NCBI GenBank assembly: GCA_042566505.1
Contig: JBHPKP010000001.1
Coordinates: 8,483 to 72,482 of the forward strand
Reading direction: 5' to 3'
Source: a bacterium
Lineage (GTDB): Bacteria; RUG730; JBDRED01; JBHPKP01
DNA: 64,000 bases
The translations under genes were made by a program, and so were the position numbers. Of this stretch, positions 5,323-34,431 are shown piece after piece. Position 1 is the stretch's first letter, and each line of letters opens with the position of its first letter. The notes below the pieces were generated by a model. That model saw only the letters and a program-made list of their open reading frames with translations. It searched no databases and had not been told where the DNA came from.

Positions 5323-5394
5323 AGCCGGCGAAGGGAGTTGAACCCCCGACCTGCTCATTACGAATGAGATGCTCTACCACTGAGCTACGCCGGC
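5323..5394 (-). tRNA. tRNA-Thr (anticodon CGT)
   Basis: Reverse complement folds as a cloverleaf. Perfect 7-bp acceptor stem GCCGGCG/CGCCGGC, D-arm GCTC/GAGC, anticodon loop TTCGTAA, T-loop TTCAACT. CCA not encoded. Confidence 0.75.
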
Positions 5395-7871: not shown

Positions 7872-9461
7872 TCAATTTCCCCACGATTTATAATCAATAT
7901 GCTGAAAAATGTTATCCATTGATTCTATTTCTTTTAAATAAGTCTCATTGATTTGGTTAGATTGAATAGCATCGTAAAGTTTCAAGAATCTATTGATATG
8001 ATCCTTTGTGCGTTTGAGCGCATATTCTGTCATTGTCCCTGTACTTAGTATAAATGCCCAGTCACTGGACTGAGCAAGTAGAAGTTCACGGCCCGCCTGA
8101 TTCAATGCTCGCTTTTTCAAGCCATAAGTATCTTTATTTTGCTGCGCTAGTTCTGTCATGAGATCGCCAATTTTATGCAAATGTCTATAGACCCAATCAT
8201 TGTCGCCATTCAACCAAAATTCATTGTAACCCTTGTTTCCCCAAGACGAACAAGTTGGCTGCTGCACTTGCAATACTTGATTTTCATTGAGGTATTCACT
8301 TGGAGTTATGGTTCTAATTGTATCCTGATCATGTTGAAGTTTTCTGAATAAGAAATTCAGGAACTTAGGTCCTTCATACCACCAATGCCCAAATAGTTCT
8401 GCATCATACGGTGCCACAATAATAGGTTTACGGTCCATTGCATCATGCAAATATTCTACCTGCTTCTGCCTGTTGAATAAAAAATTACCTGCATGCTCTG
8501 CCGCTGCTTCACATGCACTAAACGGACTATACGGCTGCTTTTGACCCATACCAACTTTGCCTGTGATTTTGTGATACTTTATTCCAATGCCTCGTTTCAC
8601 TCCATCTTCATGTAAATATGGCTTAACATAATCATACTCCAAATCATAACCTGCATCCCTATAAAATTCTCTATATCTATAATCACCCGGATACCCGGTC
8701 TCTGCACTCCATACCTGCTGCGACGATTCAATATCACGCCCAAAAACAGCCACACCTGATTCACAATAGATAGGTGAATAAATTCCATACCTCGGACGAG
8801 GCGAACCATATAGGATGCCATGTGTATCTGTAAAGAAATATTTAATATCAGAGTCTTTTAAGAACTTATCATATCCAATTCTATATCCACATTCAGGCAG
8901 CCAAATACCCTTAGGCTCACGTCCAAAGTGTACTTTATAATCCTCACATGCAACCTTGATTTGCGCTTTAACATTGTTTTCATTGATCATAAGCGGCAAG
9001 AATCCATGCGTAGCGCCGCATGTAATAATTTCCAGTTTCCCAAAATCCTGGAACTTTTTGAATGCATTTAAAAGTTTGCCATTGTATTTATCATTAAAAA
9101 TATGCCAGCAACTTTTGAATTTACTCTCATACATTTTTGCAGCTTCATAGAATGGTGTATAAAACGTCCGCTCAAGCTCCTTTTCTGAAAATTCTATATT
9201 TTTTTTAAGATGCCGCGTGTAACGCTCACATAGAAGTTCATCGGAAAGCATATTACAAAGTGTAGGAGTAAGCGACATTGTGATACGAAAATCTATACCA
9301 TGATCTATCAATCCATCAAATACTTGTATTAGTGGTATATATGTTTCAGTAATAGCTTCATATAACCAATCTTCTTCTAGAAAATCATTGTATTCCGGAT
9401 GCCTGACAAATGGCAAATGCGCATGAAGCACTAAACATAAATAACCTTTTTCATTCAACAT
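7872..9461 (-). CDS. glycoside hydrolase family 57 protein, probable 1,4-alpha-glucan branching enzyme
   Basis: N-terminal LVLHAHLPFVRHPEY motif and ~530 aa length typical of GH57 branching enzymes. Confidence 0.75.
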   Translation of the reverse strand: MLNEKGYLCLVLHAHLPFVRHPEYNDFLEEDWLYEAITETYIPLIQVFDGLIDHGIDFRITMSLTPTLCNMLSDELLCERYTRHLKKNIEFSEKELERTFYTPFYEAAKMYESKFKSCWHIFNDKYNGKLLNAFKKFQDFGKLEIITCGATHGFLPLMINENNVKAQIKVACEDYKVHFGREPKGIWLPECGYRIGYDKFLKDSDIKYFFTDTHGILYGSPRPRYGIYSPIYCESGVAVFGRDIESSQQVWSAETGYPGDYRYREFYRDAGYDLEYDYVKPYLHEDGVKRGIGIKYHKITGKVGMGQKQPYSPFSACEAAAEHAGNFLFNRQKQVEYLHDAMDRKPIIVAPYDAELFGHWWYEGPKFLNFLFRKLQHDQDTIRTITPSEYLNENQVLQVQQPTCSSWGNKGYNEFWLNGDNDWVYRHLHKIGDLMTELAQQNKDTYGLKKRALNQAGRELLLAQSSDWAFILSTGTMTEYALKRTKDHINRFLKLYDAIQSNQINETYLKEIESMDNIFQHIDYKSWGN

Positions 9462-9491
9462 ATTAACCTCATAAAATTTTGGGGGAGGCAG

Positions 9492-10091
9492 CTATTTTTT
9501 CTGTAATTCAGAAGAACTAAAATTAAATTCTGTCACTCTCTGTTTTAGCATATTAACTATTTCGTCAGACGAACCAGGAGTCTTATTTTGCAATGACTCT
9601 AAAAAAGAGCGGAATTCGTCAGTTATTTGCATCCAATTTGCATCAAATTTATCAGACACCTTATCAGACGGCATATAAATCACATTTGAACGTGCCAAAA
9701 TTACAAAATGCCCTTCATCAAATAAGTAGCCCATTTCTGCACAAAAGACCTTGCAAGCACCATCATTTGAGTCCACATACCAGTTTCTTGTCTCAAAATC
9801 CACATCAACATCAAACGAATAATGTTGGTTAGTTCCATTAAACTCAATATTGGTTATATCGTAAAATCTAATTATTGCTTGAGAAGCTGCGAAAAGTTCA
9901 AAACCATAAAAATTCAAAATTTCTTGATGATGCTTATCATTAATATCCCAATAAGCAAATATTTTAGAAGGATTGCATGGCATAATTACAAGTTTAGTTT
10001 CATTATATCTAAGCGGCAAATCGTTAGTATTTTTTCCGACTTGTTTTTGAAGAGGAGTTTGACCAAAATTTGTATTTGAGTACATGTTCAA
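9492..10091 (-). CDS. hypothetical protein (possibly the DUF4912-type partner often found beside GH57 genes)
   Basis: 199-aa ORF immediately downstream of and co-oriented with the GH57 gene. Family assignment is from memory of the GH57/DUF4912 gene pair and is not verified. Confidence 0.4.
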   Translation of the reverse strand: MNMYSNTNFGQTPLQKQVGKNTNDLPLRYNETKLVIMPCNPSKIFAYWDINDKHHQEILNFYGFELFAASQAIIRFYDITNIEFNGTNQHYSFDVDVDFETRNWYVDSNDGACKVFCAEMGYLFDEGHFVILARSNVIYMPSDKVSDKFDANWMQITDEFRSFLESLQNKTPGSSDEIVNMLKQRVTEFNFSSSELQKK

Positions 10092-10203
10092 TAATTTCCT
10101 TTTGATTCATAATGAATATTAAATATAACGTTTTATTTTATTTGTTTTTAGACAAAAACACAATAAAATTTTCATGAAGTTTTGATGCATTTATGAAAGG
10201 ACT

Positions 10204-11115
10204 TCACTGTATTTTATGCTTTGCATTATAAATTAGGTTAATATTACCCAAATCACAAAATCCGTGTGTTTTGGAAACATTTTTTACGATTACATCGCAT
10301 TTTGCCATGAAAAGAAAAAATATTGGTTTCATTGCATGTGACAAAGTCTCAAAATTCCCCTGCCCCTTACTAATAACCATATCAGCCTTTCTATACACCT
10401 TCAAGAAATTGGGATCACAAAGCTTTAAAATTGTACCCGGAGCATCCGATCCACTTGATATGATTTGGCATGATTTGTCGAGCCCACAGAAAACTGCGTC
10501 TTCTAAAGTTGCATCATTAATTATTGGAGATTTTTTTACAGCATAAAATACATTTTTAATTGGATAATGCGCTTTAATATACTCGATAAGAATCCTATCA
10601 AACACTGTTTCCCCTGCATTATCCCCAATGTACAAAATATTTTTTGCTTTTTTTAATGTATGTTCAAACTCTTTAAAATCAAAAACAGCCTTTTTATTGT
10701 TTTTTACAAATTTCGTCTCTTTTGTCAGTATTTTATTGATCTCTTTTTCAACATTGAGTGTACTTTTTATACCATAGTCTATGACATTACCAATTGCTGC
10801 AAGCTCAACAGCTGTTAAAAGACTACCTTTTGAATGGCTCACTTTTCTTTTGAGATGATCATAAACCTTTAGAGCGGTTACATTACTATAATGCTTTCTA
10901 TGCTTAAAAGGGTCAGCAACTTTCGAATGTTCTTTTATAACCTTGTACATAATCCTTGCAAATTCAGGTGGTGATTTATGTTTTGGAAAAAATTGGATTT
11001 TTTGCGCAATTTCATTGATAACATTGTGTTTTTTGGCTTCACTTAAATGCAGCATATTAACAGTTTCAATTGCCTGCCTAAAAAAACACGGAATACATTC
11101 AAAATATGTTTTCAA
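10204..11115 (-). CDS. DUF89/ARMT1-like damage-control phosphatase family protein
   Basis: N-terminal Cys motif (ECIPCFF) and GDNAGETVFD block resembling the metal-binding motif of DUF89 proteins. Size 303 aa. Confidence 0.55.
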   Translation of the reverse strand: MKTYFECIPCFFRQAIETVNMLHLSEAKKHNVINEIAQKIQFFPKHKSPPEFARIMYKVIKEHSKVADPFKHRKHYSNVTALKVYDHLKRKVSHSKGSLLTAVELAAIGNVIDYGIKSTLNVEKEINKILTKETKFVKNNKKAVFDFKEFEHTLKKAKNILYIGDNAGETVFDRILIEYIKAHYPIKNVFYAVKKSPIINDATLEDAVFCGLDKSCQIISSGSDAPGTILKLCDPNFLKVYRKADMVISKGQGNFETLSHAMKPIFFLFMAKCDVIVKNVSKTHGFCDLGNINLIYNAKHKIQ

Positions 11116-11324
11116 GTTTTAGCTCCTATGATTAATGTAAAAAGTTATTATACCACGATATATACCAATTTAATATTTTAAAAAAAACCGAATTACTTAA
11201 GTGTCTCACTAATTAACAACCTGTCCGGGTTGAGGGAAGACACAAGCAACTCGGTTTAATTATGAAATTCGCATTATAAACTAACCACACAAACATAGCT
11301 TTGTCAAGAGGCTAATAATTGTTT

Positions 11325-11594
11325 TTATCGTCGAAACTTTTTCATTATATTTATTTCTTCAGCAAAAACATCTAAAACCTTCAGAGAACTATGCTCACCA
11401 CTTACTATTTGTATTTTTGACTTAGCAAGTCCCAATTGTTTTGCAAAAAAACTAATTAATTCTTCGTTCGCCTTTCCATCTTTAGCAAGTGCCTTAATCT
11501 TTACTTTATAATAAATCTTGCCATCCGCATGTTCCCACATGCCGCAAAATTCATTTTTCTTAGCATTTGCAGTAACTTTTATGTTTATTTTCAT
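11325..11594 (-). CDS. YggU/DUF167 family protein
   Basis: 89 aa, MKINIKVTANAKKNEF...IVSGEHSSLKVL pattern typical of UPF0235/YggU. Confidence 0.7.
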   Translation of the reverse strand: MKINIKVTANAKKNEFCGMWEHADGKIYYKVKIKALAKDGKANEELISFFAKQLGLAKSKIQIVSGEHSSLKVLDVFAEEINIMKKFRR

Positions 11595-12079
11595 ACCATC
11601 ATGTCATGTCTAATCTCTGATAATTCTTTAAAATGCTTGCGTTCTTCACTAATAATATCATCAATAAAGCATCTTTTATCTTCCGGGATTAGTGGTTTGA
11701 TCTCTGAATAATACCATATTGCTTCTTGCTCACTTTGAATCGCTAAATCGAGCGCAGAAAAGATATTGTTAATATCGTATGTAATCGTTCTCTTTTTATC
11801 TCTACTGAAAATTATATTGTCTGCATACGAACGAATATATGTGAAATACTCTTCCGGATAATTATCAACTGAACTATAATCAGCAACACTTTTTGCCAAC
11901 TCTTCAAAAAACTCTTTATGTTTCTGCTCTTCTTGCGCCATAAATTCAAAAAATTCTTTTAAATTTTCTTTTTTTGTATTTTTTGAAAGCTCTGTATAAA
12001 ACTTTTTTCCTTCTTCCTCGATTCTAATAGCAATTTGAAAAATCTCCGAGATATTAAATTTTTCCATAATATTCTCCAT
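11591..12079 (-). CDS. ferritin-like (rubrerythrin-like diiron) domain protein without rubredoxin domain
   Basis: Two E...EExxH-like helices (EEQKHKEFFEEL ... EERKHFKEL) typical of the ferritin-like superfamily. Size 162 aa. Confidence 0.55.
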   Translation of the reverse strand: MENIMEKFNISEIFQIAIRIEEEGKKFYTELSKNTKKENLKEFFEFMAQEEQKHKEFFEELAKSVADYSSVDNYPEEYFTYIRSYADNIIFSRDKKRTITYDINNIFSALDLAIQSEQEAIWYYSEIKPLIPEDKRCFIDDIISEERKHFKELSEIRHDMMV

Positions 12080-12087
12080 TTTTTTAG

Positions 12088-14028
12088 TTATATGCTTCTA
12101 TAAGTATCCTTTAACACTTCAACAATAAACGGATCGAATTGTAACCCTTTGCAGCGATGCATTTCCTCAATTGCGTCTTCTCTGCTAAGTGTATTTTTAT
12201 AAGTTCTATATGAAGTCATTGCATCAAAACTATCCGCCACTTGTAAAATCCTTGCAAGCAAATCAACCTTTTCCTCTTTCAATCCATCGGGATAACCTGT
12301 GCCGTCCCATTTTTCATGATGATGCCTAACAATTTTCTTTATTTCAGACAAAAAATCCATAGGGGTAATAATACTTTCACCCCGAACAGGATGTGTCTTT
12401 ATTATATTATATTCTTCATCAGATAGTTTTTCTTCTTTGTTTAATATTTTTTCATCAATAGAAATTTTTCCAATATCATGCAAAAGTGCTGCATAATTTA
12501 ATAGCTCTATATCTTTTTTGGAACAACCAACTTTTTCTGCAATCGCAATACTGATAAGCCTTACACGTTCAACATGTCCACGTGTATTAATATCCTTGAA
12601 TTCAAGAGCCTTTGATAAAGATTCAATTGTACCCAAAATATTGTGCTTAAGTTCTGTATATGAAGAAGCATTAATAAAAGTTACGCCAATTTCCAAACGT
12701 AACAAGTTTAATGCAGTTAGTTCCTGTATTGTAAATGTTTCGCACTCTTTCTTTTCACCTAAAGTCATAAAACCTATCAGTTTTTCATTTACTAAAATAG
12801 GCACACACACTTCTGCTTCCATGATTTTTAAATAATGCTCTGCTGCATGATAACCTTTTCTTGTTTCATCAAAATTTTTCTTAATATTATGTATCCAAAT
12901 CCTATTCCCCGATTTCAACCATTGAACTAGAAAGTGCTTTGAACTAAATTCCATATCTTTGCAATTGCTGCAATCTCCATGCAGACCTTTTAGTACATAT
13001 TTTTTTTTGTCTGCATCAAAAAGGAATAAAGTTACTTTTTTAACCTTAAATATCTCAGAAATATTTTTTAAAACATTTTCAACTAATTGTCCAATATCCA
13101 ACATTGAAACTATTTGCTCTTTAAATCTTCTTACATCAGCTTCATATTTATTGTCCGTCAGATACATTTTGTTAATTATTTTTTGAACATATTTCAAATA
13201 TGGAAAATAGCAAAAAGAAATGAATGCGATTGATAAAAACCTAAAAAATATTAAGTTTTTTAGATTTAATTTTACCGCAAAAAACTCAAAAACAAACATC
13301 AAAAATAAATACGTAACCGTAAAGGAGCTGCCCATAATAACATGGACAGTACTTCTTTTTACAACACTCTGAACACCAAACAAAGTATATCGAAAAACCG
13401 CATATACCGTCATTCCTAAATAAAATAACACTCCAATAAAACTATAAAAAATCAACTTGAAGCAACCATAGAATGGCAATAAAACTAAAGTAAGCAGCAA
13501 TATTATCTGCAGACCAATATGCCCAATAAATATGCATCTGGCTTGCAGCCTTAAAATACTATTAAACAGATATTGCGTTATTCCGGTCATATATAAGGTG
13601 TATAAAATCGAGTATAAGAAAAACCCTAAAAAAATAATCGAATTTAAACTAAAAACAATCGTCAACTCCGGATCATAAGTTATTCCTATCATATTTCTAT
13701 CAAAAAGGATGATCATAAATATAATAGCTCCTATTGTTAACCAATGAAAAATTTCTAATAAACTTAATTTTTTTTGATATGTAAATACTTTTATAAACAT
13801 GATATTTGCAACTAAAACAAAAACCCAGCTTGCAAATAGTATTTTGAGCAACAAAGCAGATTGAAACAAGCTGGCAACACTTAATAAGATCAACCAAAAA
13901 CTAGTAACAAATATAAAAATTAAAAAAAGTTTTCTAATATAAAGCTCCACTTTTAACTTGCTAAACAATAGTATCCCCAGTATCAAGTTTACAGATATTG
14001 ACAGTGTAATTAATATAATTTCTAACAT
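12088..14028 (-). CDS. 7TM receptor-GAF-HD-GYP phosphodiesterase (c-di-GMP)
   Basis: About 7 predicted TM helices N-terminally, a central GAF-like region, and a C-terminal HD-GYP domain (LHDIGK ... HHEKWDGTGYP). Confidence 0.8.
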   Translation of the reverse strand: MLEIILITLSISVNLILGILLFSKLKVELYIRKLFLIFIFVTSFWLILLSVASLFQSALLLKILFASWVFVLVANIMFIKVFTYQKKLSLLEIFHWLTIGAIIFMIILFDRNMIGITYDPELTIVFSLNSIIFLGFFLYSILYTLYMTGITQYLFNSILRLQARCIFIGHIGLQIILLLTLVLLPFYGCFKLIFYSFIGVLFYLGMTVYAVFRYTLFGVQSVVKRSTVHVIMGSSFTVTYLFLMFVFEFFAVKLNLKNLIFFRFLSIAFISFCYFPYLKYVQKIINKMYLTDNKYEADVRRFKEQIVSMLDIGQLVENVLKNISEIFKVKKVTLFLFDADKKKYVLKGLHGDCSNCKDMEFSSKHFLVQWLKSGNRIWIHNIKKNFDETRKGYHAAEHYLKIMEAEVCVPILVNEKLIGFMTLGEKKECETFTIQELTALNLLRLEIGVTFINASSYTELKHNILGTIESLSKALEFKDINTRGHVERVRLISIAIAEKVGCSKKDIELLNYAALLHDIGKISIDEKILNKEEKLSDEEYNIIKTHPVRGESIITPMDFLSEIKKIVRHHHEKWDGTGYPDGLKEEKVDLLARILQVADSFDAMTSYRTYKNTLSREDAIEEMHRCKGLQFDPFIVEVLKDTYRSI

Positions 14029-15977
14029 ATGACTATTTTCCTTAAAGCTTTTGACGCATAGTAAGCAATTTGGGGATCAAACCACAAACTTGAATATTTC
14101 CCAATCTCATACAATGCCTTATCAAAAGATTGGGCACCTCGATATGGGCGTGAAGATGTCATGGCATCAAATGCATCTGCAATTGCTATTATCCTCGAAA
14201 AAAACGGTATTGATTCCTTTGAAAGGTTGTCAGGGTAACCTGTCCCATCCCATTTCTCATGATGGTGTCTCACAATCTCTTTTACACTTGTTAAAAATTT
14301 TATTGGATGAATAATATTTTCACCCAAAACCGGATGTTCTTTGATTTGATCAAATTCTTTTTTATTCAGTTTGGACTCTTTGTGTAAAACCTTTGAATCA
14401 ACTGCAATCTTGCCAATATCATGTAAAAGACCTCCAAATTCCAAAAGATCCAACTCATGACGCTCCAGTCCAATTTCCTTACCAATTTCAACTGCATACC
14501 CAACTACTCGTTCAGAATGTCCACATGTATATAGGTCTTTTGCCTCTATTGCATTTGTGAGCGCTTTAACAGTTCCCAGATAATTATTTTTAAGTTCATT
14601 ATATGAAATAGCATTTGAAATACTTAATGCAGTTTCATTTGCAATAACCTGCAATAGTTTTTTTTCATTTTGACTATATGTCTGCTCATCATTTTTTTCA
14701 CTTAATACAAAAATACCTACTAATTTCTGGCTATAAAAAACCGGAACAAAAAGCTCGAGTTTATGACTTTCAATAAAATCTAATAACTTTGAATCATTTA
14801 TCCCATATTCGAATATATTACCTTTAGTTAATACCCCTTTTGATTCTTTCATAAGCTTTATGACTCTACTTTTTTCATCCAAAATAATAGGAGACTCCAA
14901 CTCATCTGAACTGGTTTGAGAGGCATCCAAATAGTAAGTTTTTTGTTTATTGTCGTACAAAAAAAGTGCAACAAAACTCATATACCATTTTGAGTCCATT
15001 GCATCCAAAATAATATCAACTAAATTTTGCAAATTTAATACAGTTAGTATTTTATTTGAAAATTTGTTTGCAACATTAAAGTTATCTATATCTGCATTAA
15101 ATATTTTATTCTCAAAAAATAATTCAATTTTACTTTTCAAAGGTAAAAATATAATCGAAATAAGTACAGACATTACAAAACGTGCAAAAATTGAATTATA
15201 CCCGGCAAGGTTTTGAAGTACATGTTCGAAAACATAAATTCCAGAGAAAAATATTGAAGTAATAATTACCACAATAGATCCATAAACAGTGCTTTTTTTA
15301 AGAATATATCTAAAATTAAATAAATTTAGATTATATGCCCAATAGTACAAAAAGATAATATTATTTATCCCGACAAAATAAAAAAGTACTTTATAATTAT
15401 TTGTATTAACATACGGCATAAAAATAAAACACAAATAATACAACCCACCTAAATAAACACAACTAAACAGAACACTCATACTTATATCTGTTTTCTCTAC
15501 ATACCAAAAATATATTTCATACAAAAAGAAAAGAGACACAAGAAAAACAAATTCCGAATAAACAATAAAAAGATTTGTATAGTTTATTGAAACAATACCC
15601 GAATCAAATGAAAGAAAATTTTTATCAAACACAATAAATGTTGTAAATATCATGCTTACTAAAAAAATTACTGATTTTATTTTGGTATTGATATCCAGAC
15701 GTTTAGAAATTTTTGAAGCAAAAAGATAAAAACTAAAAATTAGACAGGAATACACATACAAAAAAGAATAAAATAAAAATGATTTATTATAAACATGGAT
15801 AGAAATTATATTGACAAGCCATATCGCTGCAAAAAAACCAATCAATAAAAGTGGGAAAATATATTTTGATCTGTTTTTTTCAACAGCTTGGCTCGGAGAG
15901 AATAGTTTTGATAAAAGGTTTTTAAAAAGCCCTAGAAACACTATTTTAAATTTTCTTAAAAATGTACCTTTTTTCAT
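14022..15977 (-). CDS. 7TM receptor-GAF-HD-GYP phosphodiesterase (c-di-GMP), tandem paralog
   Basis: Same architecture as the downstream neighbour. The HD-GYP core (LHDIGKIAVD ... HHEKWDGTGYP) is near-identical, and the two ORFs overlap by 7 nt. Confidence 0.8.
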   Translation of the reverse strand: MKKGTFLRKFKIVFLGLFKNLLSKLFSPSQAVEKNRSKYIFPLLLIGFFAAIWLVNIISIHVYNKSFLFYSFLYVYSCLIFSFYLFASKISKRLDINTKIKSVIFLVSMIFTTFIVFDKNFLSFDSGIVSINYTNLFIVYSEFVFLVSLFFLYEIYFWYVEKTDISMSVLFSCVYLGGLYYLCFIFMPYVNTNNYKVLFYFVGINNIIFLYYWAYNLNLFNFRYILKKSTVYGSIVVIITSIFFSGIYVFEHVLQNLAGYNSIFARFVMSVLISIIFLPLKSKIELFFENKIFNADIDNFNVANKFSNKILTVLNLQNLVDIILDAMDSKWYMSFVALFLYDNKQKTYYLDASQTSSDELESPIILDEKSRVIKLMKESKGVLTKGNIFEYGINDSKLLDFIESHKLELFVPVFYSQKLVGIFVLSEKNDEQTYSQNEKKLLQVIANETALSISNAISYNELKNNYLGTVKALTNAIEAKDLYTCGHSERVVGYAVEIGKEIGLERHELDLLEFGGLLHDIGKIAVDSKVLHKESKLNKKEFDQIKEHPVLGENIIHPIKFLTSVKEIVRHHHEKWDGTGYPDNLSKESIPFFSRIIAIADAFDAMTSSRPYRGAQSFDKALYEIGKYSSLWFDPQIAYYASKALRKIVIC

Positions 15978-16152
15978 ATTGAAAGATACTCATCTATATA
16001 GATTAAAGATTACAATGCCGTGCATACATTATTATTTAGAATATTCGAATTATAACTAATTATATTTTTCAGTACAAGGATAAATGTTTTGAATACGTCT
16101 AGGATTTAGAAGGAAATAGACTTGTTAAGCTGCCATATAAATTTGTTAGTTT

Positions 16153-16500
16153 TTACTTAATCATTACAAGCAGCATCTTGAATTTTTCTTTAGCTTTTAG
16201 GGAATGAGGTTTATTGGCAGGCATTATAATCAGCTCACCATCTTTAACTTCATATAACTTACTGTCAATCATGATATTTGCAGTTCCGTCGACAATTTTC
16301 ACTAATGCATCAAATGGAGCAGTATGCTCACTTAATCCTTGACCTGCATCAAATGCAAAAACAGTTACAGTACCGGTTGGTTTATTAACCAACGTACGAC
16401 TTACAACTGATCCTTCCTGATAATTTACACTTTCTTTTATATTAATAATTTTCTCTGTCATAATATTTTTATTTTGCATATTATTTGTTAACTTGTACAT
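16153..16500 (-). CDS. cupin-domain protein
   Basis: 115 aa. Conserved small-barrel cupin_2-like sequence with H residues in motif positions (SEHTAP...KPHSL). Confidence 0.6.
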   Translation of the reverse strand: MYKLTNNMQNKNIMTEKIINIKESVNYQEGSVVSRTLVNKPTGTVTVFAFDAGQGLSEHTAPFDALVKIVDGTANIMIDSKLYEVKDGELIIMPANKPHSLKAKEKFKMLLVMIK

Positions 16501-17357
16501 TAATATTTTCCCAATGCATTCTTTCTGACTTGATCCTCTGCCATATCTAAAATATCTTCTATCAATATATTTAATTTTTTATTTTGTTCGTTTTGCAGCG
16601 CTATCCGCTTATTTTTCGACTGAACTCTTGGCTTATCAACTTCAAGCTGTTCCGTCCGAATCTGTTCTTTTAGTGAAATTGCAAAATAGCTTCTTAGTTT
16701 ACTACGTTCACTTCTACTAAGTGATGTCTTGTTCCCTGTTTGTATTTCAAAAAATATATCTTCTGCTCCAGCCGGACTTCCAACTGAATCAATTAGTTTA
16801 TCTTCCCAAACCGATCCTGAATATGTATTGGTATTTTTGTTGCGAGCTTGTACAAGCACCGTATCTTTTGTTTTTTCAAATATTGAAGTAACCAGTCTTA
16901 AAGCCTTGCTCTGCGCACTATTATATTCATTTACACCAAAAATATATAAGCCTATAAACGCTGTAATTACTGCCGCTGCCAATACTATCGACGCTATTAT
17001 CATTCTTCTGAATCTTCTTTTTCTTATTTTACTTATTTTCCACCACTCTAAAAAAAAGCCATGCCCTTTTGGGCATTCAGAAATCAAATATCGTTCTCTA
17101 AATACTTTTTTAACCAGAGTTGTATTTTCTTTACAAATCGGACACTTGTAATGCTCACTTTTGGGAATATAACTTTCATCATGAAATTTTCTTTTTATTC
17201 TTGTAGCAAACACACTGCTGTTTACTTTTAATATATCTTCAATATCATTTTTTTTTGTAAACCACACTCCTTTACAAATATTACAAACACCAAAAACATG
17301 ACCATTTGCACTTTTTCTTTGCAATAAACCAATGCATTCATTATCCGGGCATTTCAT
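16500..17357 (-). CDS. membrane protein with two N-terminal zinc-ribbon (TFIIB-type) domains
   Basis: Two CxxC...CxxCxGxWF-type zinc ribbons, one TM helix, then a Ser/Lys-rich C-terminal domain. This is an anti-sigma-factor-like topology. Start overlaps the cupin stop (ATGA). Confidence 0.5.
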   Translation of the reverse strand: MKCPDNECIGLLQRKSANGHVFGVCNICKGVWFTKKNDIEDILKVNSSVFATRIKRKFHDESYIPKSEHYKCPICKENTTLVKKVFRERYLISECPKGHGFFLEWWKISKIRKRRFRRMIIASIVLAAAVITAFIGLYIFGVNEYNSAQSKALRLVTSIFEKTKDTVLVQARNKNTNTYSGSVWEDKLIDSVGSPAGAEDIFFEIQTGNKTSLSRSERSKLRSYFAISLKEQIRTEQLEVDKPRVQSKNKRIALQNEQNKKLNILIEDILDMAEDQVRKNALGKY

Positions 17358-17628
17358 ATTTTTTCTCCATAAATAGGTTTTTGCTGTTTACAATAATAAT
17401 TAATCAGATGGCTATGTGGATTTCACGAACGGAATGCGAAAATTTTGCGAAAATAAATGTAATATTATTTTTTTGAATGGTATAGGCAGATACTATCTTT
17501 CATCCTACATAGACTGGGAACATATGCGAGATGATTATTACTAGTAGTTTTGGCGAAATAATATAGAAGCTGGAATTTAGAATATAAAATCTAGGAGAGA
17601 ATGATAAAAAAAATCAGTTCATTTTTAT

Positions 17629-18321
17629 TCAAGAAGAAACCACTTGCTCATCATCTGAAACTCGCCCATCCAAAAGATGAACTTTGCGGCTTAAATACTT
17701 TATTACCTTTTCATCATGTGTTGCAAAAATAAAAGTTGTATCCAACTCTTGATTAAGCTTTCGCATAATATCAAGAATATTATATGAATTATCCATATCC
17801 AAGTTTGCAGTAGGCTCATCTGCAAGTATCAACTTTGGCTTTTTTACAATTGCGCGCGCTATTGCAGTTCTTTGCGCTTCACCACCTGAAAGCTGAAAAG
17901 GTCTGGAATCTTTTTTATCCAAAATCCCAACATGATTTAGAGCACTAAGAACCTTATCCCTACGTTGATTGTCAGAGAAATTTTGAAGTAAAAGTGGGAA
18001 TTCTACATTTTCATAAACAGTATAAACAGGTAAAAGATTGTAAGTTTGAAAAATAAAACCCATATGCTGATTTCTAAGTTTTGCTGATTCCATATGTGAT
18101 AGAGTTTCGATTTTACAATCCAATACAGTTGCACTTCCGAAAGAAGGCACATCCAGTGCGCCAATAATATTCAAAAGTGTAGTTTTTCCTGAACCACTCG
18201 GACCTATAATTCCCGTAAACTCGCCTTTATTAAACTCCAAACTCACTTCATGTAATGCTGTAAAAAAATTCCCGCCGATTGGATAATTCTTTGTAACTTT
18301 TTTAATCTCAATAAATGCCAC
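17629..18321 (-). CDS. ABC transporter ATP-binding protein (MacB/LolD/FtsE-like), no adjacent permease
   Basis: Walker A GPSGSGKTT, signature LSGGEAQR, Walker B ILADEPT. GTG start inferred. Confidence 0.85.
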   Translation of the reverse strand: MAFIEIKKVTKNYPIGGNFFTALHEVSLEFNKGEFTGIIGPSGSGKTTLLNIIGALDVPSFGSATVLDCKIETLSHMESAKLRNQHMGFIFQTYNLLPVYTVYENVEFPLLLQNFSDNQRRDKVLSALNHVGILDKKDSRPFQLSGGEAQRTAIARAIVKKPKLILADEPTANLDMDNSYNILDIMRKLNQELDTTFIFATHDEKVIKYLSRKVHLLDGRVSDDEQVVSS

Positions 18322-18345
18322 AATAGCCTCCCAGTAAACCTTGTA

Positions 18346-18522
18346 TTATTTGAATAATCCCAAATACTCCTCGTATCCTTCTGTTTCCATTTGGTCTTTT
18401 GGGACAAATCGAAGTGCTGCAGAATTCACACAATATCGAATACCTGACGGAGAGCTTTTTTCTTTAAACACATGTCCCAAATGAGAATCAGCTTGCTTAC
18501 TACGAACTTCGGTTCTAACCAT
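18346..18522 (-). pseudogene. msrB: truncated remnant of peptide-methionine (R)-S-oxide reductase MsrB (C-terminal ~58 codons only)
   Basis: Minus-strand [42 protein letters not shown]... matches the C-terminal HLGHVF...RYCINS block of MsrB. The catalytic N-terminal half is absent and upstream sequence has stops in all frames. Confidence 0.55.
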
Positions 18523-18689
18523 AAAAAACTTTCGATCTTTCTTTTCAATCTAAATCCTCAATAGAAAGCGCCATTTCTTACAAAAAATTATAACCAATAA
18601 AGTTTTGATTTCCAATTTATTTATTCAAAAAAAAAGCAAAAAATACTAGACTAGTACATTCTTTAAAATTTATCTCAGGATTTAATAAT

Positions 18690-19583
18690 ATGCTTTATAA
18701 AATATTTTATAACCCCATAGTAAGCGGTATGCGCAGCAAAAATAATGCACTCACTAAACTTACAAAGCAACTAACCAAACACAAAATCCAATTTGAAGTC
18801 GTTGCCACAACAATTGACAATACAGATGAAAAGGAACTAATTAAAAATATCAAAAAGTTTAAAGCAATAATCGTTCTCGGTGGTGATGGAACATTAAACA
18901 AAACTCTAACATATCTCATAAAAAACAAAGTATCTATCCCCATAGGTTTATTGCCTTGCGGCACTGCAAATGTTTTTGCAATCGAAAAGAAAATCCCATT
19001 CAAAATAAATGCAGCTCTTAAAGTTATATTAAATCATAATGTAAAACTACTAGATATAGGACGAGCAGCAAACAGACGCAAGATTTATTATTTTTTATTA
19101 ATGGCAGGAATTGGTTTTGACGCAAAAGCTGTGTTTGATGTAAACCCAAAAATCAAAAAATATACAAAAAAACTAGCATACATTTTGGCAGGTTTAAAGA
19201 ATTTCATAAAAAGACCTCAAAAAATTGAGGTAGAATTGCCCCTTTTAAAAAAGAAATTCCCTACAACATATGTAGTCATAACTAACAGCAGTTATTATGC
19301 AGGTAAATTTAAAATTGCACCGGATGCGGATATGGCAGACGGTTTATTTGATATGTGCCTATTTAAAGTTAAATCTAATATCGAATACTTAAAATCCATT
19401 CTACATATCGTAAAAAAAACCCATATTACAAAAAACCATATGATGCATATACAAACCGATAAATTCATGATCCGTTCAAAGGATAAACATCCTGTTTACT
19501 TCCAACTTGATGGAGAGGCCATAGGAACACTGCCCCTAAGAATAGAAATTCTTCACAAACACTTGCCCTTTTTGCTGCCATAA
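18690..19583 (+). CDS. diacylglycerol kinase catalytic-domain lipid kinase (YegS/BmrU-like)
   Basis: AIIVLGGDGTLNKTL motif of DAGK_cat. Size 297 aa. Confidence 0.8.
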   Translation: MLYKIFYNPIVSGMRSKNNALTKLTKQLTKHKIQFEVVATTIDNTDEKELIKNIKKFKAIIVLGGDGTLNKTLTYLIKNKVSIPIGLLPCGTANVFAIEKKIPFKINAALKVILNHNVKLLDIGRAANRRKIYYFLLMAGIGFDAKAVFDVNPKIKKYTKKLAYILAGLKNFIKRPQKIEVELPLLKKKFPTTYVVITNSSYYAGKFKIAPDADMADGLFDMCLFKVKSNIEYLKSILHIVKKTHITKNHMMHIQTDKFMIRSKDKHPVYFQLDGEAIGTLPLRIEILHKHLPFLLP

Positions 19584-23353: not shown

Positions 23354-25051
23354 ATGTCCCTCAAGCAAACACTCGATAGAAGAGAAAAAAAAATATTTAA
23401 TAAAAAAAACAATCCACCTTTAAAAGGTGACACTATTGCAAAAACAATTAAAAGAAGAATAGTGTCTAGATATTATGTAAATAATTTTTCTGCACAACTT
23501 TCGTCAACACAAAACGAAACTAAAACAACTGGCACGATTATAACTGTCAGTGAAGATGGTATGACAGGTCAATTTAACCATCCTTTAAACCTATTAGAAA
23601 GAATTGATATTAAATTAATAACTCCAAAAAAAGAAGAATACCTTTGTAAAGGAAGAATAATGTGGGCAAATTCAATTGATAATAATCAATTTCAATATGG
23701 TATTGGTTTTTTAGACACTAACTCCAATAAAGAAGTGGTCCTATTCCTAAAAAATTTTATAAACAAGGAACAAAAAAATCTTCCTCAAAACGAAAGAAGG
23801 ATTAACAACAGAAGAACAAAAACAAACAACAAATTGAATGACAACAAAAGGAACACTGAGAGAAGGATAAACAAAAGTATATTTAAGAAATGTATCGCTA
23901 CTTCTAAAGTTGATTACCTTCTAAAAAAAGTCAAAGGTTTTTTTAGAGAAACTTCTACTGCAGCTGCATCAAAGATAGTCACACACGGAAGAGAAATGAT
24001 AGGCTTTAGCTCTTGTAGTTATCTTGGACTAAATAATGACACTAGAGTCAAAAATCTAATGATAAAATCTATTAAACAATACGGAACAACTACTTGCAGC
24101 TCTCCACTAGCCAGTGGCACTATGGATATTCATAATAAATTGACAAAAAAAATTGCTGAGTTTCATAAAACAGAAGACAGCATTTTATATTACATGGGAT
24201 ATTTAGCAAATCAGGGATGCTTAGGTTCTATAGTAAGCAGCCATGATTATATTCTTACTGATGAGAAAAGTCATGCCAGCATAATCGAAGGTTGTTCATT
24301 AGCCAATGGAACCTTCTTGACATATAAACATAACAATATGGATGACTTAAAAAAGCAATTAAAAAAACTTCCAGATACTGGGAAACTTATAGTAACTGAT
24401 GGAGTTTTTAGTATGGATGGAAATGTTGCTAAACTAGACGATATTTATGATTTAGCACAACAATATGATGCCGGAATTATGGTAGACGATGCTCATGGTA
24501 TAGGCGTCTTGGGAAACAATGGAGGCGGTACAGCTGAACACTTTGGACTTGAAGGTAAAATTGATATCATAATGGGTACATTTAGTAAATCAATGGCTCT
24601 AATAGGAGGATATATTACAGGAAAGAAAAGTCTTATTGATTACTTAAAGTGGACAAGTAGAGCTTTTATTTTTAATTTAAGCTTGCCACCCTATATCATC
24701 GAACCTGTTTCAAAAATTATTGATATAATTCAAAAAGAACCAAAACTAAGAGAGTGTTTATGGAATAACATTCATTATATGAAGACTGGACTGCGAGATT
24801 TAGGATTTGATATTGGAAGTCCAGATGCAGCAATAATACCAATTTGGATCAAAAATAACGAAAAAACATATAAACTAGTTGAAGAACTTGAAAAACAAGG
24901 AATCTTTGCAGATACTGCAATTTATCCCATAGTAAAAAAAAAGGAAACCATGATTCGTCTTGTTATTACAGCGGAACACAGTATAGATGATTTAAAAAAA
25001 ACAATTTCTATTTTTAAAACTGTTGGCAAAAAACATAAGTTGATTCCTTAG
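23354..25051 (+). CDS. PilZ-domain / alpha-oxoamine synthase fusion (serine palmitoyltransferase/BioF/Kbl-like PLP acyltransferase)
   Basis: N-terminal ~150 aa carry PilZ-like motifs RIVSR (RxxxR) and VSEDGMTG (DxSxxG-like), then a Lys/Asn/Arg-rich linker. The C-terminal ~370 aa are a class-II aminotransferase AOS-family domain with the PLP-lysine block GTFSKS. Preceded by GGAG RBS. Confidence 0.7.
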   Translation: MSLKQTLDRREKKIFNKKNNPPLKGDTIAKTIKRRIVSRYYVNNFSAQLSSTQNETKTTGTIITVSEDGMTGQFNHPLNLLERIDIKLITPKKEEYLCKGRIMWANSIDNNQFQYGIGFLDTNSNKEVVLFLKNFINKEQKNLPQNERRINNRRTKTNNKLNDNKRNTERRINKSIFKKCIATSKVDYLLKKVKGFFRETSTAAASKIVTHGREMIGFSSCSYLGLNNDTRVKNLMIKSIKQYGTTTCSSPLASGTMDIHNKLTKKIAEFHKTEDSILYYMGYLANQGCLGSIVSSHDYILTDEKSHASIIEGCSLANGTFLTYKHNNMDDLKKQLKKLPDTGKLIVTDGVFSMDGNVAKLDDIYDLAQQYDAGIMVDDAHGIGVLGNNGGGTAEHFGLEGKIDIIMGTFSKSMALIGGYITGKKSLIDYLKWTSRAFIFNLSLPPYIIEPVSKIIDIIQKEPKLRECLWNNIHYMKTGLRDLGFDIGSPDAAIIPIWIKNNEKTYKLVEELEKQGIFADTAIYPIVKKKETMIRLVITAEHSIDDLKKTISIFKTVGKKHKLIP

Positions 25052-25069: not shown

Positions 25070-27799
25070 ATGTATTTAATAATTCTATTCCCAATAGCAT
25101 TTGTAACTTTTTTTATTTTTGTTGGAATATTTAAAATACGTAAAAATTATTTTTTAAAAAATTATTTTATTTCTTTCAATGTTATAACCTTGATTTGGCT
25201 ATTAACTAACTTTTTTTGTTTGTATACAGGTGTTGGCTTTTTATGGTTTAAACTAGCCTACGCAACAGGTGCATTAGTACTCTGCACTACCTTTTTACTT
25301 ATTTTAAGTTTCTCAAAACAAGCAAAATTATCAAATTTCACATTATTAAAAATATATTTAATTGGAGGTTCCTTTTTCACATTATCTCTTTTTGACAACA
25401 TTTTTTTTAAAGGAAAATCTGAAACTTATACAGATTTATTTCTTGTATATTTTATATCACTCATAGGATTATTATTGTTTTCTTTATATAAAATATATAT
25501 CGTATCTAAAAATTTTCAAGGAATTAAAAAGTTACAAGCACGTTATATTTTCTTAGGATTATTCACATTTATTTTTGTCAGCTCACTTATGAGCTTTTGG
25601 TCACCTCTTCTTTTTGATTTTCCAGAACTAGGAAGATATGACTTTTTTGGACAACTTTTTTTCATAGGTTTTACAGGATATGCAATCATCCAGTATAAAC
25701 TTTTGGATATTGACCTTGTCTGGCGTTACACTTCCAGCTATTTACTGTACTTTTTTCTTGGTTCATCACTCTTTGTTTCTATTCTTTTTAGTGTCCGAGA
25801 TTGGTTTTATTCAATCTTAGTAGTCTGTGTCTCATTTGTAGCCTTCTTACCCTTTCTTCATAAATTGATATTGAAATTTGCAAACAACATATTATTAAAA
25901 AAATACAATAGGGTTTGGGATGACTTAAACAAACAAGGATATGAAGATGAGGTTTTTGGCACAACGAAAAAATTAATTAGTAAAAGATTAAACAACATCC
26001 TAAGGCAGCTAAAATTAGCAAATGGCAGCTTCTTTATATTTAAAGAACAAAGTGATAACTATATTTTATTTGAACATCAGGGTAACCAAGGTTCAAAAAA
26101 TATGCGGATTAACTCAAGCAATAAAATTATTGAATATTTAAAGTTTACTAAACAACCTCTAATGAAAGATTTAATTGTTAATGATGATAAAACAGATATT
26201 TTAAGTACAATGGACGAACTAAATGCTGAAATAGCATTCCCTGTTTTCTTAAGTTTTAAACTAATCGGAATACTCTTCCTTGGTCCAAAAATCACAAATA
26301 ATATTTTCAACCCAACTGATATTAACGCTATTGTAGGCATCATCAAACGAACCGAACCAAAGTTAAAGCAAACACTTTACCTAGAACAGCAAGAACAATT
26401 AATGGAAGCATCCAAGAAAATGAGCGAAATAAAAGAACTCAATAAACTTGCAAAATACATTGTTCACACTTTCATGCGTTCTTTAAATTCTGTGAATGCT
26501 TCTATTTATATTTACAATGAAAAAGAAAGTAACTATACAAAAGCTTATGAAAAAGGACTCCTGCAAAACAATAAAGACATTGCATTCAAACATGATGATC
26601 ACTTTATCAAATATCTAACACAACGAGGATCTCCATTACTTTATAATGATATACATAGATGGGCAGAAGAAACAAGATCAGAAGAACTTAAAAATGTTGC
26701 AAAAAAATCTGCCGATATACACGCACAAATAACTATTCCAATGATTTATGAAAAACTTTTAGGGTTTGTTGTATTGGGTGAAAAACGAGTTTTCAAAACA
26801 TATTCGTACGAAGAAATAAACACCTGCAATATACTTGCTTCAGCTGCATCTACAAATATCCACAACATCATCTTGGCAGAGGAAGCTATGCGTGACCCAT
26901 TAACAAATTTGTACAATAGAAAACACTTTAGCGCACTTGTAAAAGAAAGCATTCTCAAATCAATTAAAATCCAAAAACCTCTTTCGTTTATCATTATTGA
27001 CCTTGACCACTTTAAACAATACAATGATGATTTTGGACATCAATATGGTGATACAATTCTTGAAAAATTTTCAAACTATATTGTGCGAAGCATCAGACCC
27101 GCTGATATTGCAGTAAGATATGGTGGTGAAGAATTTGTGCTTATCCTACCTAACACAAACAGTGAAGGTGCGCAAGTTTTCTGCAACCGTCTGCAAGCAA
27201 GCTTAAAAGACGAACCTGTAATAAGTGACATAACAATGAGTATTGGAATTGGAAGCTTCATACCTGAAAAACGTGAAGAAGACGAAATTTATCCTCTTGA
27301 TATTGACAGAATGAAGAATCAACTCATAAAAGTAGCAGATGCAGCTGTTTATAAAGCAAAGAAAAATGGAAGAGATCAAATATACGTCGGAGAAGAACTT
27401 TTGGAACGAAGTATATTAACAAAGAAGAATGAATATAAAATAAAAATTGCAATAATAATTCCTGACGATATAACTGCTCGCAAAACCAGCCACACACTCC
27501 AATTATTAGGATGTGATACACATGTATTTAATACGGGTCGTGATGGTTTAAGATTTATGGATCAATCTAGTCCGGACATAGTTTTGATGTCCCTTGACTT
27601 GCCAGATGTAGATGGAGTTGAAATCATCAGACAAATGGCAATAAAATATATCACTACAATAAAAGCTATTCTAGCCACAACCAACAAAGCTCACCTACGC
27701 GAAGAAATGCTTGAACTTGGAGTACAAGGATTCTTCCTCGAGCCTCTCAAACCACAAGATATTGAAGCATGGATTAAGTATATTAAAGAGATGATTTAA
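25070..27799 (+). CDS. 7TM receptor-GAF-GGDEF diguanylate cyclase with C-terminal receiver domain
   Basis: N-terminal polytopic membrane domain, central GAF-like region, GGDEF domain with intact active site RYGGEEF and I-site RPAD, C-terminal REC domain (DD pair, LMSLDLPD, T, K). Starts 19 bp after the PilZ-AOS gene. Confidence 0.8.
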   Translation: MYLIILFPIAFVTFFIFVGIFKIRKNYFLKNYFISFNVITLIWLLTNFFCLYTGVGFLWFKLAYATGALVLCTTFLLILSFSKQAKLSNFTLLKIYLIGGSFFTLSLFDNIFFKGKSETYTDLFLVYFISLIGLLLFSLYKIYIVSKNFQGIKKLQARYIFLGLFTFIFVSSLMSFWSPLLFDFPELGRYDFFGQLFFIGFTGYAIIQYKLLDIDLVWRYTSSYLLYFFLGSSLFVSILFSVRDWFYSILVVCVSFVAFLPFLHKLILKFANNILLKKYNRVWDDLNKQGYEDEVFGTTKKLISKRLNNILRQLKLANGSFFIFKEQSDNYILFEHQGNQGSKNMRINSSNKIIEYLKFTKQPLMKDLIVNDDKTDILSTMDELNAEIAFPVFLSFKLIGILFLGPKITNNIFNPTDINAIVGIIKRTEPKLKQTLYLEQQEQLMEASKKMSEIKELNKLAKYIVHTFMRSLNSVNASIYIYNEKESNYTKAYEKGLLQNNKDIAFKHDDHFIKYLTQRGSPLLYNDIHRWAEETRSEELKNVAKKSADIHAQITIPMIYEKLLGFVVLGEKRVFKTYSYEEINTCNILASAASTNIHNIILAEEAMRDPLTNLYNRKHFSALVKESILKSIKIQKPLSFIIIDLDHFKQYNDDFGHQYGDTILEKFSNYIVRSIRPADIAVRYGGEEFVLILPNTNSEGAQVFCNRLQASLKDEPVISDITMSIGIGSFIPEKREEDEIYPLDIDRMKNQLIKVADAAVYKAKKNGRDQIYVGEELLERSILTKKNEYKIKIAIIIPDDITARKTSHTLQLLGCDTHVFNTGRDGLRFMDQSSPDIVLMSLDLPDVDGVEIIRQMAIKYITTIKAILATTNKAHLREEMLELGVQGFFLEPLKPQDIEAWIKYIKEMI

Positions 27800-34357: not shown

Positions 34358-34431
34358 TACGCCATATAGGACTTGAACCTATAACCTACTGATTAAGAGT
34401 CAGTTGCTCTACCAATTGAGCTAATGGCGCG
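34358..34431 (-). tRNA. tRNA-Lys (anticodon CTT)
   Basis: Reverse complement shows GCTC/GAGC D-stem, anticodon loop CTCTTAA, T-arm ATAGG-TTCAAGT-CCTAT, acceptor stem with G1-U72, A73. Ends approximate to within 1-2 nt. Confidence 0.75.

Follow-up and report, generated by a model that had tools for sequence, protein, structure and literature searches.

A tandem pair of TM-GAF-HD-GYP genes predicted to encode membrane-bound c-di-GMP phosphodiesterases

Gene content and domain layout of the locus

Within the window, meaning the whole 64,000-nt stretch of DNA analysed here, six genes lie on the minus strand between 17357 and 11325. The four ORFs named in an earlier interpretation made from the letters alone (the sequence-only reading) are all present: a zinc-ribbon membrane protein (16500..17357, 285 aa), a small single-domain cupin (16153..16500, 115 aa; Cupin_2 E 1e-7, 32 bits against a cut-off of 27.2), and two HD-GYP genes, HD-GYP-1 (14022..15977, 651 aa) and HD-GYP-2 (12088..14028, 646 aa), referred to below as the 'a' and 'b' types. 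A gene for a rubrerythrin/ferritin-like protein (11591..12079, minus strand, 162 aa; Pfam Rubrerythrin E 5.9e-13), a four-helix-bundle protein with two ExxH motifs, starts 8 nt past the HD-GYP-2 stop, and is followed by a DUF167/YggU-family gene (11325..11594, minus strand, 89 aa; Pfam DUF167 E 1.1e-22). The 7-nt overlap reported for the two HD-GYP genes was seen in the sequence as ATGTTAG (14022..14028, minus strand). It places the HD-GYP-2 start codon inside the last codons of HD-GYP-1, an arrangement that suggests translational coupling, and the two proteins are probably co-translated. The zinc-ribbon and cupin ORFs had been said to share ATGA, but their junction is TAATG, with a 1-nt overlap; an ATGA overlap is found instead between the rubrerythrin-like and DUF167 genes, at 11591-11594.

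The two HD-GYP genes encode paralogous TM-GAF-HD-GYP proteins. HD-GYP-2 has nine TM helices (aa 2-289), with the GAF domain at 312-457 and the HD-GYP domain at 459-646; a beta-hairpin at 114-126 faces outside, and a cytoplasmic motif, YAVFRYTLFG, lies at ~209-218. In HD-GYP-1 a hydrophilic N-terminus, modelled as a low-confidence amphipathic helix, precedes eight confident TM helices; its GAF domain covers ~aa 316-459 and its HD-GYP domain aa 461-651. The AlphaFold models (pLDDT 89.8 and pTM 0.77 for HD-GYP-2, pLDDT 83.9 for HD-GYP-1) have the same layout of helices, hairpin and GAF domain. Both catalytic domains match Pfam HD_5 (PF13487; E 4.9e-38 for HD-GYP-1 and 3.7e-37 for HD-GYP-2), scoring 131 and 128 bits, well past the curated cut-off of 27.2. 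The GAF regions fall just below the Pfam GAF_2 threshold (25 bits in HD-GYP-1 and 27.7 in the other copy, cut-off 28.6). In the models these parts exceed pLDDT 90 and reach a Foldseek TM-score of 0.75 to 3CI6, and the GAF part of HD-GYP-2 matches solved GAF domains with a Foldseek probability of 1.0.

The zinc-ribbon protein carries two zinc-ribbon-like motifs of the Cys4 and Cys3His kind (aa 3-28 and 72-99), a basic KIRKRRFRR stretch, one TM helix (119-137) and a charged C-terminal tail of 145 aa that matches no family. The proposal of two zinc ribbons holds for the ligand patterns, CxxxxC...CxxC (C3/C8/C25/C28) and CxxC...CxxxH (C72/C75/C95/H99), but the matches to PF13453 are below its cut-off of 22 bits (19.9 for the whole protein, 14.8 and 13.6 for its halves). 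Its description as anti-sigma-like is not supported. Zinc-binding anti-sigma (ZAS) proteins are recognised by HxxxCxxC and an adjacent ECF sigma-factor gene; the 285-aa protein lacks this motif, and its gene is flanked by those for an ABC ATPase and the cupin, with no sigma-factor gene nearby. The window resembles ChrR and zinc anti-sigma factors in pairing a zinc-binding N-terminal part with a cupin, but here the two are separate proteins and no homology was detected. When 5.8 billion proteins were searched through a word index, which is not exhaustive, the zinc-ribbon protein itself was the sole match, no relative was found in 185,579 species genomes (genome_contigs), and the contig index held no exact record of it.

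The membrane module and the age of the duplication

Pfam assigned no family to the TM regions of the three module-bearing proteins of the window, even at E<=10, and none reached the gathering score of HisKA_7TM (PF16927). A profile of the three regions nevertheless aligned with PF16927-bearing TM regions over 236 columns, with an hhalign probability of 97.8% and E 8.7e-13. PF16927 is also carried by the homologs P0003, P0019, P0020, P0002 and P0078. The nearest homologs, P0003 and P0078, have weak PF16927 matches that span the whole model, and 14 of 21 module-bearing proteins match the family. Compared with HisKA_7TM histidine kinases, the module can be aligned over TM1-TM7 and the RYxLFD motif. 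The "7TM" label was right as to seven HisKA_7TM-like helices and short by two, nine being present in the HD-GYP-2 model; the module is a divergent HisKA_7TM domain with two further TM helices. MASE9-12, considered from the literature as the identity of the membrane domain, do not fit.

The same front end is indeed reused ahead of a GGDEF domain, as had been proposed. The diguanylate cyclase gene (25070..27799, plus strand) encodes 909 aa, with the 9TM+GAF module at aa 3-440, a second GAF domain at 440-605, a GGDEF domain at 606-770 (GGEEF, I-site RPAD) and a REC domain at 797-902. Its module matches HD-GYP-2 at BLASTP E 5e-23 and HD-GYP-1 at 1e-5, in alignments that extend across the TM region, so that similarity among the membrane parts, on which the sequence-only reading depended, is detectable. 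The further idea of a modular family that toggles synthesis against hydrolysis was overstated: the module serves as a widespread, general-purpose front end. Its full length is matched by 95 cluster representatives, of which the majority are histidine kinases and smaller numbers have HD-GYP, GGDEF, PP2C phosphatase or class III cyclase outputs. The 7TM+2TM+GAF arrangement occurs mostly on histidine kinases, while in the window its output is HD-GYP or GGDEF. Similar modularity is seen in the MASE9-, MASE10- and MASE12-HD-GYP proteins (TM1467, VC1295, CdgM), where integral-membrane sensors shared with other outputs are joined to HD-GYP; these use other membrane domains, with 8, 6 or another number of TM helices, and HAMP instead of GAF, and none of the domains matched the window proteins in Pfam.

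The sequence-only reading took the pair for a recent tandem duplication with near-identical catalytic cores and fast-diversifying sensor halves. The genes are adjacent and overlapping, and the HD-GYP domain is better kept (48% identity) than the TM (29%) or GAF (26%) regions, as that account would have it, although a catalytic domain should be the better conserved part whatever the age of the pair. However, 48% identity in protein and 60% in DNA is not near-identical, and the HD-GYP-coding parts of the two genes share no direct DNA repeat of at least 18 nt. An Elusimicrobiota MAG (locus L084) also contains a separate ortholog of each copy, in matching order; there a PilZ-fused α-oxoamine synthase gene is followed by HD-GYP a and HD-GYP b. 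HD-GYP-1 pairs with gene a (L084 6577-8538; 39% identity, 434 bits) and HD-GYP-2 with gene b, which encodes P0078 (44% identity, ~550 bits). Both values are above those between the two neighbours (32%, ~270 bits). The pairs are reciprocal best hits, with bootstrap support of 97.5% and 97% in an NJ tree. This pairing places the duplication before the split of lineages whose orthologs are now ~40% identical. We consider a recent origin extremely unlikely; as judged from these comparisons, the a-b pair is an old duplication that has been kept in at least two distant genomes.

The two L084 genes are 74 nt apart, and a further related locus, L085, has a single TM-GAF-HD-GYP gene. In both genomes with a pair, the 'a' copy lacks the hydrophobic first helix and the cytoplasmic YAxxRYxLFD motif. 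Given these losses, the inputs of the two copies are probably different. A scan of genome_contigs with PGI as a synteny anchor gave a best identity of 67%, with matches in many phyla, and found no close relative and no synteny.

Catalytic residues and predicted chemistry

Both copies have the metal ligands and the GYP motif of the family, in the order GH...LHDIGK...HP...HHHEKWDGTGYP...D(S/A)FDA. The best solved HD-GYP relative is PmGH of Persephonella marina (PDB 4MCW, E 1.3e-37), in which, as in the window proteins, a GAF-like domain precedes the HD-GYP domain. They have the HD, HHE..GYP, Asp and RxYK residues in common, and alignment to the structure shows that H189, H221/D222, H250, H276/H277 and D305 are all retained. 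PmGH is soluble, and the window proteins differ from it by the addition of the nine-helix membrane module and by a degenerate KPG motif. They also differ at the third metal site: an acidic residue at the position of PmGH Glu185 defines the trinuclear-iron subclass (10.1101/2021.11.05.467447), and HD-GYP-2 has N there (KDINTRGH) while HD-GYP-1 has Y (KDLYTCGH), which places both copies in the binuclear class. The RTYK and RPYR sequences of the two copies fit RxY[K/R], the c-di-GMP-specificity motif of HD-GYPs (10.1101/2021.11.05.467447). With the metal ligands and RxY[K/R] kept and the third-site Glu absent, both proteins are predicted to be active binuclear-class HD-GYPs that would cut c-di-GMP mainly to pGpG. 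KPG, which contacts the second guanine, is replaced by KEE in HD-GYP-2 and KES in HD-GYP-1, and substrate preference could differ as a result.

Ligand gating through a GAF domain has a precedent in Tlr0485 of Thermosynechococcus, a cAMP-activated GAF-HD-GYP protein (10.1101/2021.11.05.467447) which, unlike the window proteins, is soluble. The likeness of the window GAF domains to the cAMP-bound GAF domain of Lcd1 is structural and at the level of the fold only.

A PilZ-fused neighbour, alternative readings and a possible circuit

The gene for a PilZ-fused α-oxoamine synthase (PilZ-AOS; 23354..25051, plus strand, 565 aa) ends 18 nt upstream of the cyclase gene. Pfam PilZ scores 26.7 bits (cut-off 22.5) and Aminotran_1_2 E 1e-49. 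The closest solved relative is the serine palmitoyltransferase of Sphingobacterium multivorum (3A2B, E 6e-96), and the best family is the corresponding NCBIfam NF047600, at 402 bits, below the equivalog cut-off of 640. No other neighbour is conserved in all three related loci: such a fusion lies 18 nt (window), 19 nt (L085) and 48 nt (L084) upstream of a gene that bears the module, which encodes a TM-GAF-HD-GYP protein in L084 and L085 and the GGDEF cyclase in the window. The HD-GYP pair of the window is 7 kb away from PilZ-AOS and on the opposite strand, and the association rests on three loci. Of the motifs that mark PilZ c-di-GMP receptors, RxxxR and [D/N]xSxxG, the first occurs as an invariant RRxxxR in the three fusions, and the second reads TVSEDG in the window protein, NISCNG in that of L085 and DLSIIS in that of L084. 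The L084 fusion has no PLP lysine or histidine in its AOS part, so an enzymatic reading cannot hold there.

Searches for further examples were negative. A metagenome scan with a PilZ+linker profile found no additional PilZ-AOS loci, and a full-length profile recovered 80 AOS genes, all of them stand-alone and lacking a PilZ extension; the one apparent extension, in L159, proved to be untranslated read-through. The 824 kb surrounding those 80 relatives contained no TM-GAF, HD-GYP or GGDEF ORFs. Two distant TM-GAF-GAF-HD-GYP representatives, P0158 (on a short contig) and P0115 (within a pur/pyr operon), have no PilZ-AOS, which confines the association to the closest relatives. A literature search on PilZ with α-oxoamine synthase or aminotransferase returned nothing relevant and no description of such a fusion. 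PilZ-AOS is the likely c-di-GMP reader of the circuit. PilZ domains are fused to or partnered with biosynthetic enzymes in cellulose synthase BcsA and in Alg44, where c-di-GMP controls catalysis post-translationally. The same logic is proposed for PilZ-AOS, with the difference that its partner is a PLP-dependent α-oxoamine synthase nearest to bacterial serine palmitoyltransferase.

Hydrolysis of another cyclic dinucleotide, for example 3'3'-cGAMP, in place of c-di-GMP would be in keeping with the second-best solved relative, the cGAMP-specific V-cGAP3 (5Z7C, E 1.4e-36), and with the loss of the KPG contact to the second base. We regard it as very unlikely, given that RxY[K/R] is intact in both copies while cGAMP-preferring HD-GYPs have RxxQ or RxxN, and that the conserved neighbour is a PilZ protein, a reader of c-di-GMP. 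Hypr-type cyclases are marked by a Ser signature, and the neighbouring cyclase has the canonical DPLT...GGEEF instead. An obligate heterodimer, in which 'b' senses through its intact HisKA_7TM domain and a degenerate 'a' modulates or scaffolds it, has a better claim, and we rate it as a minority possibility. GAF and HD-GYP proteins are dimers as a rule, the start/stop overlap suggests coupled translation in a fixed proportion, the a-b order is also kept in L084, and in both genomes the 'a' type has a TM1 that is no longer hydrophobic and has lost the YAxxRYxLFD motif. Against it, the 'a' copy retains every catalytic residue, the L084 genes are separated rather than overlapping, and L085 manages with one copy.

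A broader reading would make the six genes from 17357 to 11325 one functional unit, with the zinc-ribbon protein and cupin controlling the iron-dependent HD-GYPs as a ChrR- or anti-sigma-like sensor of redox state or metal, and the rubrerythrin-like protein protecting them. All six genes share a strand, the genes of each of the two blocks adjoin closely (TAATG, ATGTTAG, the 8-nt gap and ATGA), and HD-GYPs depend on Fe2+ and lose their activity on oxidation. The blocks are separated by an AT-rich intergenic gap of 175 nt between the cupin and HD-GYP-1 (15978..16152, minus strand), which contains no terminator-like site and no promoter-like site that passed our scan. These scans have no bearing on the operon question, because the numbers of promoters and terminators equalled those of the shuffled background or came close to them (36 promoter-like sites in the whole region against 39.8 expected). 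A TATAAT with TTGTAC 17 nt before it is visible in the gap, as a candidate only. The gap may hold an internal promoter, a point against a single unit. Rfam found nothing in 11000-18800 at the gathering threshold or at E<=1, and so no riboswitch or structured RNA. Conservation also speaks against it: none of the four accessory genes lies with the orthologous genes in L084 or L085. The cupin, rubrerythrin-like and DUF167 genes are absent from both related loci, and so is the zinc-ribbon protein, which the sequence-only reading had proposed to look for in relatives as a conserved partner and which, besides, has neither detectable relatives in the word-indexed search nor the anti-sigma hallmarks. 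We consider the six-gene unit improbable, and the four genes are, from these comparisons, lineage-specific neighbours and not conserved partners.

The explanation that we favour, and hold to be probable as a whole, is that the tandem genes encode translationally coupled inner-membrane c-di-GMP phosphodiesterases, an old a-b pair, opposed by the cyclase at 25070 and with PilZ-AOS as the likely reader. Each protein joins the nine-helix membrane module through a linker helix to a GAF domain in the cytoplasm and the HD-GYP catalytic domain. The helical module would perceive a signal in or at the membrane, the GAF pocket may take a small ligand, and the signal passing down the linker helix would set HD-GYP activity. 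The pair would thereby counteract the diguanylate cyclase that bears the same module, and the resulting c-di-GMP level would most likely be read by the PilZ-fused serine-palmitoyltransferase-like enzyme encoded at 23354. A more specific proposal, in which the pair and the cyclase supply the inputs to a dedicated c-di-GMP circuit centred on the membrane, with PilZ-gated AOS as its output, is speculative, and we put it forward tentatively.

Taken alone, the pair adds little to what is known, being one more HD-GYP phosphodiesterase set behind a membrane sensor domain, of a known kind. It does offer a clean case of anciently duplicated a/b genes whose order has been conserved, and the systematic loss of the first helix and signature motif from the 'a' copy is a natural contrast for the study of HisKA_7TM sensing. 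If the circuit is real, intramembrane HisKA_7TM-GAF sensors would adjust c-di-GMP to turn sphingoid-base or amino-lipid synthesis on or off, forming a second-messenger loop for membrane-lipid homeostasis. Gating of PilZ-AOS by c-di-GMP would make a direct link between this second messenger and the synthesis of membrane lipids, in a little-studied lineage related to Elusimicrobiota.

Gene layout and age of the HD-GYP pair

Six ORFs lie on the minus strand across 11325-17357. A zinc-ribbon membrane protein (17357-16500, 285 aa) and a cupin (16500-16153, 115 aa; Pfam Cupin_2) are followed by two genes encoding multi-TM, GAF and HD-GYP proteins, HD-GYP-1 (15977-14022, 651 aa; Pfam HD_5, E 5e-38) and HD-GYP-2 (14028-12088, 646 aa; HD_5, E 4e-37), each with a sub-threshold Pfam GAF match, and then by a rubrerythrin-like protein (12079-11591; Pfam Rubrerythrin) and a DUF167 protein (11594-11325; Pfam DUF167). 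Read from the sequence, the HD-GYP genes overlap by 7 nt (ATGTTAG), as the sequence-only reading stated, and an 8-nt gap precedes the rubrerythrin-like gene. The ATGA which that reading placed between the zinc-ribbon and cupin genes belongs to the rubrerythrin-like/DUF167 junction; the zinc-ribbon/cupin junction is TAATG, a 1-nt overlap. The 175-nt gap between the cupin and HD-GYP-1 contains neither a predicted terminator nor an Rfam element, and the genes evidently form two tight blocks. The zinc-ribbon gene is preceded, at a distance of 270 nt, by an ABC-transporter ATPase gene (17629-18321, minus strand) that has no permease gene alongside.

The two HD-GYP proteins had been taken for a recent duplication with near-identical cores. 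By BLASTP they are 32% identical overall; compared domain by domain, they share 29% in the TM region, 26% in GAF, and 48% in HD-GYP. The DNA coding for their HD-GYP domains is 60% identical, and those parts hold no direct repeats of 18 nt or more, so the cores are not near-identical. The TM+GAF module (the sensor front end), used as a profile in an exhaustive search, recovered P0078, 44% identical to HD-GYP-2, on contig L084 of an NCBI Elusimicrobiota MAG, which carries the nearest orthologs of the pair. The gene order on this contig is a PilZ-aminotransferase gene, a 653-aa HD-GYP protein (the first, or a, copy), and P0078 (the second, or b, copy). In reciprocal comparisons, HD-GYP-1 pairs with the L084 a protein (39%, 434 bits) and HD-GYP-2 with the b protein (44%, about 550 bits), whereas paralogs inside one genome reach only about 270 and 379 bits, below the orthologous pairs. 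Both orthologous pairs had 97% support in a neighbor-joining tree with 200 bootstraps. Furthermore, a hydrophilic N-terminus replaces the hydrophobic first helix in the a-type proteins of the window and L084, and the family motif YAxxRYxLFD is degenerate in both; the two b-type proteins keep helix and motif. The ortholog pairing, the tree support, and these type-specific features argue against recent duplication and for an ancient, order-conserved a/b pair whose sensor halves have differentiated.

The proposal that the zinc-ribbon protein is a conserved partner of this pair found no support. Searched by word index against 5.8 billion proteins, this protein retrieved only itself, and it had no relatives in 185,579 species genomes. 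Its PF13453 signals are weak, and it has neither the motif of zinc-binding anti-sigma factors nor a sigma-factor neighbor. None of the zinc-ribbon, cupin, rubrerythrin-like, or DUF167 proteins was present in L084 or in L085, another relative's contig.

Membrane module and its reuse

Pfam gave no match to the TM regions of the three window proteins that carry the module, the third being a cyclase at 25070. Their nearest homologs, however, bear HisKA_7TM (PF16927) at residues about 9-220, and a profile of the three regions matched PF16927-bearing regions with an hhalign probability of 97.8% (E 8.7e-13). On these two grounds, we assign the TM regions to a divergent HisKA_7TM domain. An alignment of 57 sequences served as input for the AlphaFold models. 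The HD-GYP-2 model (pLDDT 89.8) contains nine TM helices, the fourth and fifth separated by a beta-hairpin, together with a long linker helix and the GAF domain; HD-GYP-1 (pLDDT 83.9) is laid out in the same way, except that its first helix is amphipathic and of low confidence. Judged from the basic residues in alternate loops, the hairpin is predicted to face the outside of the cell and the GAF domain to lie in the cytoplasm. In a Foldseek search of the PDB, the GAF part alone was matched.

The cyclase at 25070 bears this module too (BLASTP E 5e-23 to HD-GYP-2; residues 3-440 by hmmsearch). After it come another GAF domain, a GGDEF domain with GGEEF and the I-site RPAD, and finally REC. The earlier suggestion of a modular sensor family was correct, but modularity of this kind is long known, with HisKA_7TM listed among described sensor domains (PMC5847659). 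At E<=1e-30, 7,545 cluster representatives match the module profile, a count that takes in multi-GAF giant proteins matched in their GAF part only. Outputs were tallied on the 95 end-to-end matches among the top 150, at least 56 of which have a histidine kinase output; the others include HD-GYP, GGDEF, GGDEF plus HD-GYP, PP2C phosphatase, and class III cyclases. The module is not special to c-di-GMP enzymes. In L087, from a different MAG of the same study, a HisKA_7TM-GAF-GAF-HD-GYP gene (8001-10466) sits mid-way in a long pyr/pur nucleotide-biosynthesis operon.

Predicted activity of the HD-GYP proteins

The nearest solved relative of the two HD-GYPs is PmGH (4MCW, E 1.3e-37), followed by the cGAMP-specific V-cGAP3. 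The binuclear metal ligands are complete and the GYP motif is present in both proteins, and their RTYK and RPYR fit the RxY[K/R] motif for c-di-GMP specificity. Because HD-GYP-2 has N, and HD-GYP-1 has Y, where PmGH has Glu185, both are assigned to the binuclear class, for which the usual product is pGpG. From these features, we expect that both are active c-di-GMP phosphodiesterases. The KPG motif is degenerate in both. This otherwise highly conserved motif contacts the second guanine; it reads KEE, KES, KKE, or KQG in the clade formed by the window, L084, and L085 proteins, and is kept by their more distant relatives.

A PilZ-fused synthase beside module-bearing genes

The window is chromosomal, with housekeeping genes (GroEL, Dxs, HisD, PEPCK, PGI, RecG), a full-length tmRNA (55364-55754, minus strand; Rfam 171 bits), and tRNAs (5323-5394, 34358-34430, 34556-34629). 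A 723-aa ORF (27-2198, minus strand) had no Pfam match at E<=1e-5. With a second GGDEF plus REC protein (51594-53216, minus strand, 540 aa), the 64 kb hold two cyclases, two HD-GYPs, and one PilZ protein.

That PilZ protein is fused to an α-oxoamine synthase (23354-25051, plus strand) and is encoded 18 nt ahead of the module-bearing cyclase. Equivalent fusions lie 19 nt ahead of a single TM-GAF-HD-GYP gene in L085 (2527-4197) and 48 nt ahead of the a/b pair in L084 (4936-6528), where carA, a purF-like gene, and carB are found just upstream. A HisKA_7TM-GAF c-di-GMP enzyme gene is thus directly downstream in all three genomes. The RRxxxR motif is invariant in the three fusions, and in all of them PilZ and synthase are joined by a basic linker that contains the (D/E)RRxxxRR repeat twice. 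None of 80 stand-alone synthase relatives from metagenomes has the PilZ extension, and the 824 kb around them contained no TM-GAF, HD-GYP, or GGDEF ORFs. Our literature search turned up no description of a fusion of this type.

The catalytic domain of the window fusion is nearest to a Sphingobacterium serine palmitoyltransferase (E 6e-96), under the NCBIfam equivalog cut-off. The L084 fusion has GNFERG for GTFSK and DETYA for DDAHG, so that neither the PLP-binding lysine nor the stacking histidine is present; this copy may have been kept beside the HD-GYP pair as a pseudoenzyme. About 4 kb from the serine palmitoyltransferase-like enzyme is a YegS/DAGK-type lipid kinase (18690-19583, plus strand), which, speculatively, could act in the same lipid pathway. 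The placement of the PilZ-fused synthase next to a module-bearing gene is offered as a lead from three loci.
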